NCBI RefSeq assembly: GCF_024298765.1
Contig: NZ_CP101218.1
Source: Escherichia coli
GTDB lineage: Bacteria > Pseudomonadota > Gammaproteobacteria > Enterobacterales > Enterobacteriaceae
Length of the DNA stretch: 2,543 nucleotides
Direction: 5' to 3' (one strand)
Shown here: positions 1-2,225 of the stretch, piece by piece
Position numbering within the stretch: the first letter of the stretch is position 1
How the letters are laid out: each line of letters begins with the position of its first letter
Translations under genes and position numbers: made by a program
Notes under the pieces: model-generated
Told to the model about the DNA's origin: nothing
The model's input: only the letters and a program-made list of their open reading frames with translations
The model's database searches: none

Positions 1-133
1 TGTCGAAAAGTTGCAGCGGAAAATGGGACAGGATGTGTATTCGTCATACCGCGAATACATTCGCTTGCATGAGAATACCTCCTGTCAGGGCAAGCCCCGA
101 CACCCCAAACGTGCAAAATGGAGAGTCATTGCG
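1..133 (+). promoter_or_regulatory. Leader region upstream of mobC; candidate operator or oriT-like (bom-like) region
   Basis: Seen in sequence: 14-bp palindrome GCGAAT-ac-ATTCGC (51-64), GAATAC direct repeat (53-58, 73-78), 9-bp palindrome CCTGTCAGG (81-89), and the 12-mer GCCCCGACACCC (94-105), which I recall as also present in the pBR322/ColE1 bom region. SD-like GGAGAG (119-124) lies 9 nt before the ATG at 134. The same frame is open back to position 2, so this region could instead be coding. Confidence 0.25.
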
Positions 134-559
134 ATGACTAAAAATAAACGTAGTGGTTCAGAAGTACGGCAGAGAACTAAGGTTATCACCCTTAGAGTAA
201 ATAACAGAGTCGCAAGCGAAATCAGACGGCGAGCGAAGAACGAAGGACTGACAATTTCAGAATATATCAGGACGGCAAGTTTAAATAATGAAATAAAACA
301 GCGCGTACCTTCCAGGTATTTAGATGAATTAATCCGACTTGGTCGGATGCAGAAGAAATTATTTGATAAGGGAAAGCGGCCGAAGGATAAGGAGTACCTC
401 GAGGTGATGCATAAAATAATTTTACTTTGCGATGAAATGAAAATAGTAACGAAGCGAATTTCTGATGTATATAATGAAATGGATTTAATAAAGGATGAAA
501 TAAAAATAATAAAAAGGATACATAAAGATAAATATCCAGGTTCGGATTTATTCAAATAA
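134..559 (+). CDS. mobC: Ribbon-helix-helix DNA-binding protein, MobC/MbeC-like plasmid mobilization accessory protein (141 aa). The frame is open to the window start, so alternative starts at ATG 23, TTG 11 or off-window cannot be excluded.
   Basis: ORF track frame 11..559. ATG at 134 is preceded by GGAGAG with a 9-nt spacer. The N-terminal basic tail followed by RTKVITLRVNNRVASEIRRRAKNEGLTISEYIRTASLN fits the RHH beta-strand/helix/helix pattern (R-x-I-x-L-R-V ... G-L-T-I-S-E-Y-I-R) typical of MobC-type relaxosome accessory proteins; the C-terminal half is charged and helical. TAA stop at 557-559. Confidence 0.6.
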   Translation: MTKNKRSGSEVRQRTKVITLRVNNRVASEIRRRAKNEGLTISEYIRTASLNNEIKQRVPSRYLDELIRLGRMQKKLFDKGKRPKDKEYLEVMHKIILLCDEMKIVTKRISDVYNEMDLIKDEIKIIKRIHKDKYPGSDLFK

Positions 560-562
560 ACA

Positions 563-590
563 AATAAGGTCTTTTAAAAAAGACCTTATT
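563..590. terminator. Bidirectional intrinsic-terminator-like hairpin between the convergent mobC and repL genes
   Basis: Perfect inverted repeat AATAAGGTCTTTT (563-575) / AAAAGACCTTATT (578-590) with a 2-nt centre, A/T-rich runs on both sides, starting 4 nt after the mobC stop. Confidence 0.6.
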
Positions 591-618
591 TAGATGTGCA
601 TTATTTTATTTCTTCGGT

Positions 619-627
619 TGTTATAAT
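619..627 (+). promoter_or_regulatory. Extended -10 promoter-like element (TGtTATAAT) pointing toward the 3' end of repL (antisense)
   Basis: TG at 619-620 followed by the consensus TATAAT hexamer at 622-627. No good -35, which extended -10 promoters do not require. In AT-rich DNA this could be chance. Confidence 0.25.
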
Positions 628-755
628 AGTTTCACCGTTAGGTGAATATTTAATTCTCATTTCAAACTCTCGACGCTGTTCAATTATTTTTTTCATTCAC
701 CACGAGCAAATAAATTAGGGTTCGCCTGAGCGGACACCGGATAACCCACTTATTC

Positions 756-1307
756 TTAACTAGATTTATCCTCTTGTTTTTCAATTGTATTTTTTCTCTC
801 AATCACAGTTGTAAACGCGATTCTGTCACCATTAAAAACAAAGTTAGGGTTAATGAAATACCTTCCTTGTCGCATTGTTTTTGCAATTATTTTCGCTTTT
901 TCCAATTCATTAAGACCTCGCTTAAAGGTTGCAAGACTTAGTCGTAATGGTTGTTTACTCGCAGAAACTTGGCACTGAAGAAACGCTTCTAAAACTAAGG
1001 TATCCAAATCAACTTCGTCTTTTGAGAGTGCAGAGTTCTGAACGGACCAAACTAAAACACCGAAGGCTTTAATTCCCGCAGAAGATAGCTCAAAAGTTAA
1101 GCCAATATTTGCTGTAAAAAGTTTTACAAACTGTTCGCTATCAACACGTTTATATGTTGTTACGTGAGTACCTTGAACCTCACCTGTGTTCTGATTGACC
1201 AGGATGTTATCATCACGACCTAGACGCGAAAGCCTAACTTGCTTCCCCTTGACAGGTACAACCATTCCTTCTAAAAATGGGTTTTCTTTATAGCGACCGA
1301 AGCTCAT
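756..1307 (-). CDS. repL: Plasmid replication initiator, RepL family (winged-helix DNA-binding), 183 aa
   Basis: ORF track 756..1307 (-). ATG at 1305-1307 on the minus strand is preceded by AGGGGTG (SD-like) with about a 5-nt spacer. The protein carries motifs I recognise from RepL of staphylococcal pSN2-type plasmids and phage P1 RepL: NTGEV near the N-terminus, a central FVKLF...GL segment, and a C-terminal LNELEKAKIIAK...YFINPNFVFNGDRI (compare LKILEEGNIIKRK...LMLNPELLMRGDD). Family assignment is from memory, not a search. Confidence 0.8.
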   Translation of the reverse strand: MSFGRYKENPFLEGMVVPVKGKQVRLSRLGRDDNILVNQNTGEVQGTHVTTYKRVDSEQFVKLFTANIGLTFELSSAGIKAFGVLVWSVQNSALSKDEVDLDTLVLEAFLQCQVSASKQPLRLSLATFKRGLNELEKAKIIAKTMRQGRYFINPNFVFNGDRIAFTTVIERKNTIEKQEDKSS

Positions 1308-1338
1308 TTTTCACCCCTAAAATGATACGCAGAAGCTA

Positions 1339-1367
1339 ATCATAGATGCGGGGTAGCTCAAAAACAA
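1339..1367 (-). promoter_or_regulatory. Candidate sigma70 promoter for repL (-35 TTGTTT, 17-bp spacer, -10 TATGAT), overlapped by an inverted half-iteron
   Basis: On the minus strand: TTGTTT (plus coordinates 1362-1367), 17 nt, TATGAT (plus 1339-1344). Predicted start near 1332 gives a leader of about 25 nt containing the SD. The inverted half-iteron GTAGCTCAA (1353-1361) sits in the spacer. Confidence 0.3.
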
Positions 1368-1412
1368 GCATAATTTTGAGCTACGGTAGCAACAGGATTG
1401 AGCTACCGTAGT
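1353..1412. repeat. Iteron-like repeats upstream of repL: two 15-bp direct repeats 22 bp apart plus an inverted half-copy
   Basis: TTGAGCTACGGTAGC (1376-1390) and TTGAGCTACCGTAGT (1398-1412) match at 13 of 15 positions with a 22-bp period. Each has internal dyad symmetry (GCTAC-N-GTAGC). GTAGCTCAA (1353-1361) is the reverse complement of the first 9 nt. Confidence 0.55.
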
Positions 1413-1476
1413 ACAGATCCTGAAAACACGATCCCCATTTCATGCGGGTTGCGAGAGATTCCCTTCTTAGTTCTTA

Positions 1477-1510
1477 ACGGTAGTGCGTACGTGCTCAATT
1501 TAGCTACCGG
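1477..1510. repeat. Degenerate additional copies of the GCTAC/GTAGC iteron motif
   Basis: ACGGTAGT (1477-1484) and TTAGCTACCGG (1500-1510) match parts of the 15-bp iteron. Between them lies the palindromic core TGCGTACG. Confidence 0.3.
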
Positions 1511-1515
1511 TTCTT

Positions 1516-1573
1516 TTCCGCTTCCTCGTCGATTCGCTCACTACGTTCGGTCACCGACTTGCGGCGAGCGGTA
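1516..1573. other. Primosome-assembly-site-like segment (ssi/pas) resembling the region just downstream of the pMB1/ColE1 origin
   Basis: Window sequence TTCCGCTTCCTCG...CGCTCACT...GTTCGG...TGCGGCGAGCGGTA shares, in the same order and orientation, an 11-13-mer, an 8-mer and a 14-mer with the pBR322/pUC backbone (CTTCCGCTTCCTCGCTCACTGACTCGCTGCGCTCGGTCGTTCGGCTGCGGCGAGCGGTATCAG) as I recall it. Not verified by a search. Confidence 0.4.
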
Positions 1574-1595
1574 ACAACACTCGCGCATTGCCGTC

Positions 1596-1621
1596 GATCC
1601 CGTTTTTGATCTGCGACGATC
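1596..1621. other. Cluster of three GATC (Dam) sites within 26 bp
   Basis: GATC at 1596-1599, 1608-1611 and 1618-1621. The window has 7 GATC in total, none in the first 1415 bp and 6 between 1416 and 1727. Confidence 0.5.
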
Positions 1622-1697
1622 GCGCCGTTTGAAGGCCTCAGGAGCACCAGAACGCGTTTTTGAGGGTCTGTCAGGGGTTTGGGCGCCTTTGGCCCTT

Positions 1698-1710
1698 AAA
1701 CGCGCTCAGA
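1698..1710 (+). repeat. 13-bp direct repeat AAACGCGCTCAGA, copy 1
   Basis: Exact 13-mer also found at 2076-2088, 378 bp away. Confidence 0.9.
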
Positions 1711-1739
1711 AGCTCCCAGACGCGATCAAATGCCAACAG

Positions 1740-1755
1740 ATGCCCGTCAGGGCAT
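1740..1755. repeat. Perfect hairpin ATGCCC-gtca-GGGCAT
   Basis: 6-bp stem (1740-1745 with 1750-1755) and a 4-nt loop. Confidence 0.7.
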
Positions 1756-1932
1756 GGGAGGCGCGAAAAATGCTTACAGAGGCTCTCAGGAGGTCAGGCG
1801 CGCCGATACCCCTAACCAGGGGCTTTCAGGTCGCCAGGAACCGCGCCAGCCTCCTGCAAAGCCGATTAGCACGGAACAGGAAGCTACTCGGTTGGGAGGA
1901 GGTCGTAGACCGTCGGTGTTGCAGCGATGGGG

Positions 1933-1986
1933 GTCTGGGGTACTCCCCAGACGGTTTCCGGTTGCGCTCAAGGCGCTGCCGGAACC
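1933..1986. repeat. Tandem GC-rich stem-loops
   Basis: GTCTGGGG-tact-CCCCAGAC (1933-1952) is a perfect 8-bp stem. It is followed immediately by GGTTTCCGG...GCGC-tcaag-GCGC...CCGGAACC (1953-1986), an 8-bp outer stem with one bulge plus a 4-bp inner stem. Confidence 0.7.
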
Positions 1987-2075
1987 GTGGCGGCTTCGGT
2001 GGTGAAGGGTGAGCGCGTTTCCAAGAGGTTCTCGAGACAACGGCATGACTGAACTGAACAGATGGAACGAGGAAG

Positions 2076-2088
2076 AAACGCGCTCAGA
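2076..2088 (+). repeat. 13-bp direct repeat AAACGCGCTCAGA, copy 2
   Basis: Exact copy of 1698-1710. The related motif CAGACGC occurs at 1717-1723 and 2085-2091. Confidence 0.9.
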
Positions 2089-2110
2089 CGCTTTGTAGCG
2101 CGCTTTTCTG
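2079..2110 (+). terminator. Weak terminator-like hairpin followed by a T-run on the plus strand
   Basis: CGCGCT (2079-2084) pairs with AGCGCG (2097-2102) around a 12-nt loop, followed by CTTTTCTG (2103-2110). The large loop and short stem make this weak. Confidence 0.2.
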
Positions 2111-2225
2111 TGTCAGGCAAGTTTGTTGTGTCTTTTGCCTTTCAGGTTGTCAGCAGCTGGCGGAGCACTGCACGGGGATTAATGCTCCCATTGCCAGGAT
2201 GAAATAAAGATTAGGAGCGACGTTA

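Follow-up and report, generated by a model that had tools for sequence, protein, structure and literature searches.

A 2.5-kb RepL plasmid of Escherichia coli with an IncI/R64-type origin of transfer and its own NikA, and the probable source of its relaxase

The stretch of DNA analyzed here (the window, 2,543 nucleotides of Escherichia coli contig NZ_CP101218.1) carries nikA, a gene for a ribbon-helix-helix (RHH) protein, directly downstream of an origin of transfer (oriT) of the R64/IncI type. The two ends of the window are contiguous in related circular records, and pGF4-G (NZ_CP172224.1; circular, 2,535 bp), a plasmid of E. coli GF4 from chicken meat, is 99.2% identical to it from end to end. 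These comparisons show that the window represents an entire small plasmid that is circular. It contains two credible genes, nikA on the plus strand and a convergent rep gene of the RepL family on the minus strand. We consider it likely that this 2.5-kb RepL plasmid provides its own oriT and NikA and borrows the relaxase NikB and the mating machinery from a co-resident plasmid of the I-complex. The positions of the features are listed in Table 1, where a slash marks the predicted cut (nic), as it does in the text.

Table 1. Coordinates of the transfer module and neighboring features in the window
Feature	Position	Strand	Basis or remarks
oriT, R64/IncI type	~19-113	- (nicked strand)	Alignment with I-complex and pCERC7-type regions upstream of nikA
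Nick core GGGACAGGATGTG	25-37	-	Minus-strand reading 5'-CACATCCTG/TCCC-3'
Inverted repeat, nick-proximal arm GTATTCGTCAT	37-47		Counterpart of R64 repeat A; paired with 69-78 when the nicked strand is folded
Inverted repeat, distal arm ATGAGAATAC	69-78		Equivalent to R64 repeat B; nicked-strand fold, alignment, compensatory change
Conserved box GTCAGGGC..GCCCCGACACCCC between the repeat and nikA	84-106		Alignment
nikA, 141-amino-acid NikA-like relaxosome accessory protein	134-559 (ATG 134, TAA 557-559)	+	Family matches, selection, predicted structure
Lineage-specific C-terminal extension of NikA	443-556 (codons 104-141)	+	24% G+C; predicted heptad coiled coil prolonging the terminal helix
Palindromic hairpin between the convergent nikA and rep	562-591		13- to 14-bp stem, conserved in relatives
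rep, RepL family	756-1307	-	PF05732, 30.4 bits (cutoff, 20.3); context, outside the transfer module

nikA and its product

In pairwise comparisons with relatives at synonymous divergence (dS) of up to 1.1, the ratio of nonsynonymous to synonymous substitutions (dN/dS) was about 0.15 for each half of nikA. No frameshifts or premature stops were found in ten relatives with 72 to 99% protein identity. Together with the Pfam match given below, these measures indicate a real gene under purifying selection and not a chance open reading frame (ORF), in agreement with a sequence-only reading made earlier from the letters of the window. A longer ORF starting at a TTG codon (11-559) is an alternative. 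We prefer the ATG at 134 because homologous NikAs align from this methionine, a Shine-Dalgarno-like GGAGAG (120-125, plus strand) lies 8 nt before it, and PGAP calls the 141-amino-acid form in relatives. Some annotations start nikA at the upstream TTG or extend it through oriT (L003 1-549 in OY754451; P0049), which is probably a recurrent gene-calling artifact.

The product belongs to the NikA-like family. It matched Pfam model PF21983 (NikA-like) with 61.3 bits (cutoff, 27; E value, 9.5e-17) and the NCBIfam equivalog NF041264 with 99.3 bits (cutoff, 80). The only solved relative, the RHH domain of R64 NikA(1-51) (2BA3), was matched with an E value of 1e-6 over residues 6 to 51. Identity to the NikA of IncI-gamma/K was 50% over residues 6 to 103, and identity to the NikA of a 3.0-kb pCERC7/NTP16-type plasmid (L005) was 42%. 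PGAP labels proteins of NF041264 "plasmid mobilization protein MobA," a name usually given to relaxases.

The sequence-only reading had called the protein MobC-like. Its assignment to the class of RHH relaxosome accessory proteins stands, but the family is different. The MobC profile PF05713 gave no match at an E value of ≤1, and the MbpA model gave 31 bits against a cutoff of 90; by profile matches the protein is thus NikA-like and not a MobC. A MobC/MbeC-family protein using the MOBQ or MOB-HEN relaxase of a co-resident ColE1-like or RSF1010-like plasmid would agree with the first impression from the sequence, and MobC, MbeC, and NikA are all RHH relaxosome accessory factors (PMC8136818, PMC9282650). 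However, besides the failure of these two models, the oriT beside the gene belongs to the IncI/MOBP type (core YATCCTG/Y) and not to the ColE1 or RSF1010 type, and we regard this explanation as extremely unlikely.

An RHH protein could also serve plasmid maintenance as a repressor, copy-number regulator, or antitoxin of the CopG, ParG, or RelB kind, its likeness to NikA being historical. The protein did give weak matches to CopG_antitoxin (19.3 bits; cutoff, 28), RelB (21.8 bits; cutoff, 50), and DUF6290, all below the cutoffs. The Gene Ontology term assigned to the gene by PGAP is "regulation of transcription," and the nikA promoter must lie in or near oriT, which makes autoregulation plausible. 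However, the subthreshold CopG and RelB matches are explained by the shared RHH fold, and the NikA-specific models scored far higher and above their cutoffs, so that an unrelated RHH family is not the better match that the sequence-only reading had allowed for. NikA conservation reaches residue 103, well past the RHH domain. Moreover, the plasmid consists of nikA and rep, with no ORF for a toxin or a partition partner, and the gene and oriT are always found together, even where the rep region is swapped. We consider it improbable that maintenance is the main function of the protein. A role as an RHH regulator, which the sequence-only reading had also proposed, is not needed for the explanation, and the protein may have one as a side role.

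An AlphaFold2 model (46-sequence alignment; mean pLDDT, 84) places helices at residues 24 to 36 and 41 to 49 after an extended segment, followed by a helix at 60 to 78 and a single uninterrupted helix at 86 to 133 (block pLDDT of this last helix, 79 to 95). The RHH domain corresponds to approximately residues 12 to 50, and the beta-ribbon of such a domain forms in the dimer only. A Foldseek search against the PDB returned nothing at an E value of ≤0.001; weak matches were to the RHH proteins Arc and AtaR and to generic coiled coils only.

The last predicted helix runs into the C-terminal extension. An unbroken 3-4 hydrophobic repeat spans residues 95 to 126 (I95, L98, M102, V105, I109, V112, M116, I119, I123, and I126) and is kept in relatives, and the coiled-coil-like character attributed earlier to the C-terminal half agrees with both this repeat and the modeled helix. 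The extension is present in all 2.2- to 3.9-kb relatives examined, with a dN/dS of 0.05 to 0.32. NikAs of conjugative plasmids have about 110 amino acids and lack the extension. The NikA match covered at least 80% of the window protein in 35 of the 2,853 PLSDB records that had such a match, which without exception were 2.2- to 3.1-kb plasmids or the two cointegrates described below. A distant long form (P0045; 152 amino acids, 43% identical) is encoded by a 2.8-kb contig that has an R64-type oriT and no relaxase. It was found by an exhaustive search; a word-indexed homologue search had given close relatives only. Tailed NikAs were found only on relaxase-less small plasmids of 2 to 4 kb and in the two cointegrates. 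According to the model, the last NikA helix is lengthened by the tail, a conserved coiled coil with heptad periodicity, which could provide additional oligomerization or a contact with the helper.

The origin of transfer

The 115 nt upstream of nikA align with their counterparts in IncI-gamma/K, IncI1/B/O, IncK2, and pCERC7-type plasmids. The window, its relatives, and the native oriTs of IncI-gamma/K (L004), IncI1/B/O (L006), and IncK2 (L024) plasmids share an identical 13-nt nick core. We take its minus-strand reading, CACATCCTG/TCCC, to be the nick-region motif of R64 and RP4-type origins, which places the predicted nic between positions 29 and 28. The position of this oriT directly upstream of nikA, missed in the sequence-only reading, is the key to interpreting the gene.

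While the core is constant, the arms of the inverted repeat differ by lineage: they are GCAATTGTAATA/TATTACAATTGC in IncI-gamma/K (L004) and GGGAATGTC/GACATTCCC in IncK2. The nicked strand folds into a long hairpin that ends at the nick core, as it does in the IncI-gamma/K (L004) and IncK2 (L014) origins. The sole change inside the repeat stem, seen in two relatives (L007 and L008), is compensatory, with C42T paired with G73A on the opposite arm. The nick-proximal arm, the equivalent of R64 repeat A, is presumably bound by NikA; indirect support for such binding and for nicking by NikB with the help of NikA comes from the compensatory change and from the nick-core recombination described below. 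Between the repeat and nikA, the GCCCCGACACCC part of the conserved box is invariant in all of the aligned I-complex and small-plasmid oriTs, and the box may contain the nikA promoter or operator. Positions 25 to 106 were 95 to 100% identical among relatives whose nikA genes differ at a dS of 0.4 to 1.1, indicating that oriT is more constrained than synonymous sites.

An outer inverted repeat, GACAGGATGT/ACCTCCTGTC at 27-36 and 77-86, places the nick core inside a hairpin stem. It creates a nick-like CTCCTG/TC on the plus strand; the corresponding sequence in the I-complex plasmids examined is TGGTC (CCATCTGGTC, CCTCCTGGTC, or CACCTGGTC). A second, inverted nick site has reportedly been described for pBuzz.

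Source of the relaxase

No NikB-like sequence was found on the circle by tblastn with NikB from three I-complex groups, which gave matches only at E values of ≥0.1. A candidate NikB remnant at 1494-1715 (E value, 0.1 to 0.4) was rejected as a chance alignment because its identity was 25%, it contained a 12-residue gap, and it crossed a stop codon. The canonical nikAB operon has nikB directly downstream of nikA; here that gene is absent, and the hairpin and the convergent rep gene follow instead. The sequence-only reading had noted the lack of an adjacent relaxase gene and left room for one immediately outside the window. Since the window is the whole circular plasmid, there is no off-window DNA, and only the first of these statements holds.

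Evidence for a relaxase supplied in trans came from two IncK2 plasmids with blaCMY-2, pTMSA992 (NZ_KR905387; L014) and p5312.29 (NZ_KR905385; L015), each of which contains a whole nikA-RepL small plasmid at its own oriT, the two small plasmids being of different lineages. The inserts are 2,310 bp in pTMSA992, with a NikA 98.6% identical to that of the window, and 2,328 bp in p5312.29, with a NikA 72% identical. Both lie between a 336-bp gene and nikA-nikB, with junction regions at 5850-5960 and 8160-8270 in L014 and at 5850-5960 and 8180-8290 in L015. Comparison with both parents showed clean reciprocal exchanges at both cointegrates. The crossover lies inside the 13-nt nick core, because the core is the only sequence that the parents share there. 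The authors of the plasmid sequences noted only "a fragment of 2.3 kb between yggA and nikA," without interpretation, and sequenced both plasmids following transformation into laboratory strains (PMC5350095). The NikB of R64 catalyzes oriT-oriT recombination, according to the account of Furuya and Komano (2003) given in PMC4902927. The cointegrates are most simply read as two independent relaxase-made joints; on this reading, it follows that an I-complex NikB cuts the small-plasmid oriT.

In the hybrid oriT that precedes the IncK2 nikAB, the same base is substituted in both cointegrates (L014 8204 and L015 8220, corresponding to window position 25), in one from G to T and in the other from G to A. 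This base is at +4 from the predicted nic, and the change is present in neither parent. The substitution may stabilize the cointegrate against resolution. A bolder proposal would make the coiled-coil tail an adaptation for hijacking. The longer helix would capture a non-cognate NikB or coupling protein from several I-complex groups and might out-compete the helper oriT, and the recurrent +4 substitution would mark selection on relaxase processing. We hold this proposal to be speculative and rather unlikely.

The distribution of the module points in the same direction as the cointegrates. Among 5,426 complete E. coli genomes, 45 carried it, in every case on plasmids of 2.2 to 3.9 kb. Six of these 45 genomes also carried an IncK2-type nikB (at least 95% identical; about 43 genomes among the matches listed), where 0.36 were expected (hypergeometric P of about 1e-6); this test covers the IncK2-type nikB subgroup only and draws on the best 60 of 796 nikB records. 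In addition, GF4, the host of pGF4-G, carries an 88.6-kb IncI1-type plasmid with nikA, nikB, trbABC, and tra genes. There is also precedent, as NTP16 and pU302S, which have nikA and oriT but no relaxase, are mobilized by IncI1 but not by IncX plasmids (PMC9282650, PMC8623487). The cointegrates, co-occurrence, co-residence, and precedent all favor dependence on a relaxase supplied in trans, one of the three possibilities named in the sequence-only reading.

Another of those possibilities was a decayed mobilization module, in which a nikAB operon would have lost its relaxase, leaving nikA and oriT without function and the plasmid unable to transfer by conjugation. The lack of a relaxase or any recognizable remnant on the plasmid agrees with decay, as does the typing of all relatives as "non-mobilizable" by MOB-suite. 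However, purifying selection acts on both the gene and oriT: the dN/dS of about 0.15 holds for both halves of nikA at a dS of up to 1.1, with ten relatives intact, and oriT is conserved beyond synonymous sites and includes a compensatory pair. The module is spread over 45 complete genomes and several rep backbones, and the recombination with IncK2 plasmids at the nick core implies continued cutting of this site. Decay is therefore a very improbable explanation.

For a plasmid that borrows its relaxase, we propose the following course of transfer. NikA would dimerize via its N-terminal RHH domain, bind its own nick-proximal arm, and oligomerize via its C-terminal helices. The bound NikA would present the adjacent conserved nick core to NikB from an I-complex helper (IncI1, I-gamma, K, B/O, or Z), which would cut the minus strand between positions 29 and 28 (CATCCTG/T). 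Export of the strand would then proceed through the coupling protein and type IV secretion system of the helper, with nikA entering last, and RepL would re-establish the plasmid in the recipient. The plasmid would retain nikA because its own repeat has diverged from the repeats of the helpers, so that the helper NikA presumably cannot bind. In the 1.5-kb Col(MG828) plasmids, which lack nikA, the oriT and its repeats are nearly those of IncI1 (L016, approximately 355-515; L017, approximately 1500-1552 wrapping to 1-110). The simplest reading of these sequences is that there are two hitching strategies: a plasmid may mimic the binding site of the helper NikA, or it may bring its own NikA and its own site and need only the helper relaxase.

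Several points weigh against this interpretation. We infer DNA binding by NikA, its contact with NikB, mobilization, and the role of the coiled coil, as we do every function of this lineage. The protein is only 50% identical to the helper NikAs, and its recruitment of a foreign NikB is assumed. Both cointegrates were reported in a single study; they might in principle be artifacts of assembly or have arisen by homologous recombination over 13 bp. The co-occurrence is limited to the IncK2-type subgroup and is confounded by poultry origin and by the near-clonal strains PK8261 and PK8275. Finally, promoter scans found no sigma-70 consensus upstream of nikA, either in the window or in a relative whose upstream DNA is contiguous.

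Plasmid composition and known systems

The hairpin downstream of nikA has a predicted energy of -13.9 kcal/mol on the plus strand and -14.9 kcal/mol on the minus strand (z of about -5). The sequence-only reading had placed a strong terminator 4 bp after the gene. The hairpin is real, but it begins 2 nt past the nikA stop codon, and the word "strong" is only partly justified for nikA because the stem has only three G-C pairs and a consensus scan accepted the T-tail on the minus strand only. The hairpin is probably a shared bidirectional terminator, since in the 2,310-bp relatives the end of rep lies directly beside it. The convergent rep gene was correctly recognized in the earlier reading, and its product is of the RepL family. 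In the window, the hairpin and the end of rep are 164 nt apart. This spacer contains a 31-amino-acid ORF at 601-696 (minus strand) and a second small hairpin at 631-646 (plus strand), which recurs within the annotated rep gene of L002 and has no evident function.

Eight further ORFs of the window had no significant Pfam match. An Rfam scan of the whole window at an E value of ≤1 found no family, including no ColE1-type RNAI/RNAII. By all of the tests run, the window outside nikA and rep is noncoding. A G+C-rich block of 310 bp at 1693-2004 is 88 to 91% identical in hundreds of 624 matching PLSDB plasmids, which are mostly E. coli plasmids of about 1.5 kb typed as Col(MG828). The block gave no significant protein-family match and no Rfam match, and it seems to be the sequence that is typed as the Col(MG828) replicon; it is a candidate for an origin or a priming site.

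Comparison of the parts indicates that the plasmid is a mosaic. The module of oriT, nikA, and hairpin is 97.8% identical to that of the 2,310-bp plasmids, but rep is a different allele. The rep region is 78% identical at the DNA level to that of pSCU-106-10 (window 730-2143 compared with L002); the 2,310-bp relatives have another rep region. Against the nikA of L011, there were 0 synonymous differences in codons 1 to 103 and 8.5 in codons 104 to 140, indicating a recombination breakpoint within nikA. E. coli GF4 has three small plasmids, of 2,535, 2,354, and 2,236 bp (NZ_CP172224, NZ_CP172225, and NZ_CP172226), each with this oriT-nikA module, which implies that the different rep variants are compatible. 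Near-identical 2,310-bp plasmids are recorded for Actinobacillus pleuropneumoniae (NZ_CP031857) and Klebsiella pneumoniae (NZ_CP045685), which reflects either a wider host range or contamination or mislabeling.

MOB-suite types the nikA-bearing relatives as non-mobilizable and the 1.5-kb Col(MG828) plasmids as "mobilizable." The sequence evidence suggests that the nikA-bearing plasmids are equipped to travel with conjugative plasmids of the I-complex, major vehicles of extended-spectrum beta-lactamase and AmpC genes in poultry and humans. Recognition of the nikA-oriT module would improve the prediction of plasmid mobility. The cointegrates indicate that such hitch-hikers can fuse physically to resistance plasmids at oriT. 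The two kinds of small plasmid, one with its own NikA and repeat and the other with an oriT mimic and no nikA, also offer a pair on related replicons for the study of specificity.

The module resembles the R64/IncI1 relaxosome in its protein (PF21983 family and 2BA3 match), in the location of the gene directly downstream of oriT, and in the nick core, the inverted-repeat architecture, and the GCCCCGACACCC box. In contrast to R64/IncI1, the window is a 2.5-kb RepL plasmid without nikB, tra, or trb genes, its repeat sequence is different, and its NikA is 31 residues longer, the difference being the coiled-coil tail. ColE1 MbeC and RSF1010 MobC are likewise RHH relaxosome accessory proteins encoded beside oriT; however, they belong to another Pfam family, their own relaxase is co-encoded, and their oriT is of another type.

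Among small plasmids, tiny cryptic ones of E. coli such as pBuzz and further oriT-only ("pOriT") plasmids use an I-complex oriT together with a helper relaxase in trans (PMC9282650, PMC11389934). They have no accessory gene and copy the repeats of the helper, whereas both the repeat and the NikA of the window are its own. Among them are the 1.5-kb Col(MG828) plasmids, which have the 310-bp block in common with the window. The closest resemblance is to the pCERC7/NTP16/pU302S group, which also combines an R64-like oriT with its own NikA and no relaxase, and in which the nick core of L005, AGGACAGGATGTG, differs from that of the window in the first base only. According to Moran and Hall (2017), as cited in PMC9282650, all members of this group have one identical NikA, which is 53% identical to that of R64. 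However, the window NikA is 42% identical to the NikA of L005 and has the coiled-coil tail, and the inverted repeats differ. The replicon of the window is of the RepL/Col(MG828) type, while that of the group is ColE1-like with RNAI/RNAII (L005 also has a Rop gene), and the window carries no resistance genes. A RepL/Col(MG828) lineage with a long-tailed NikA was not found in the literature searched. The window plasmid thus represents a new lineage of a known kind, the nikA-only small plasmids of the pCERC7/NTP16 type.

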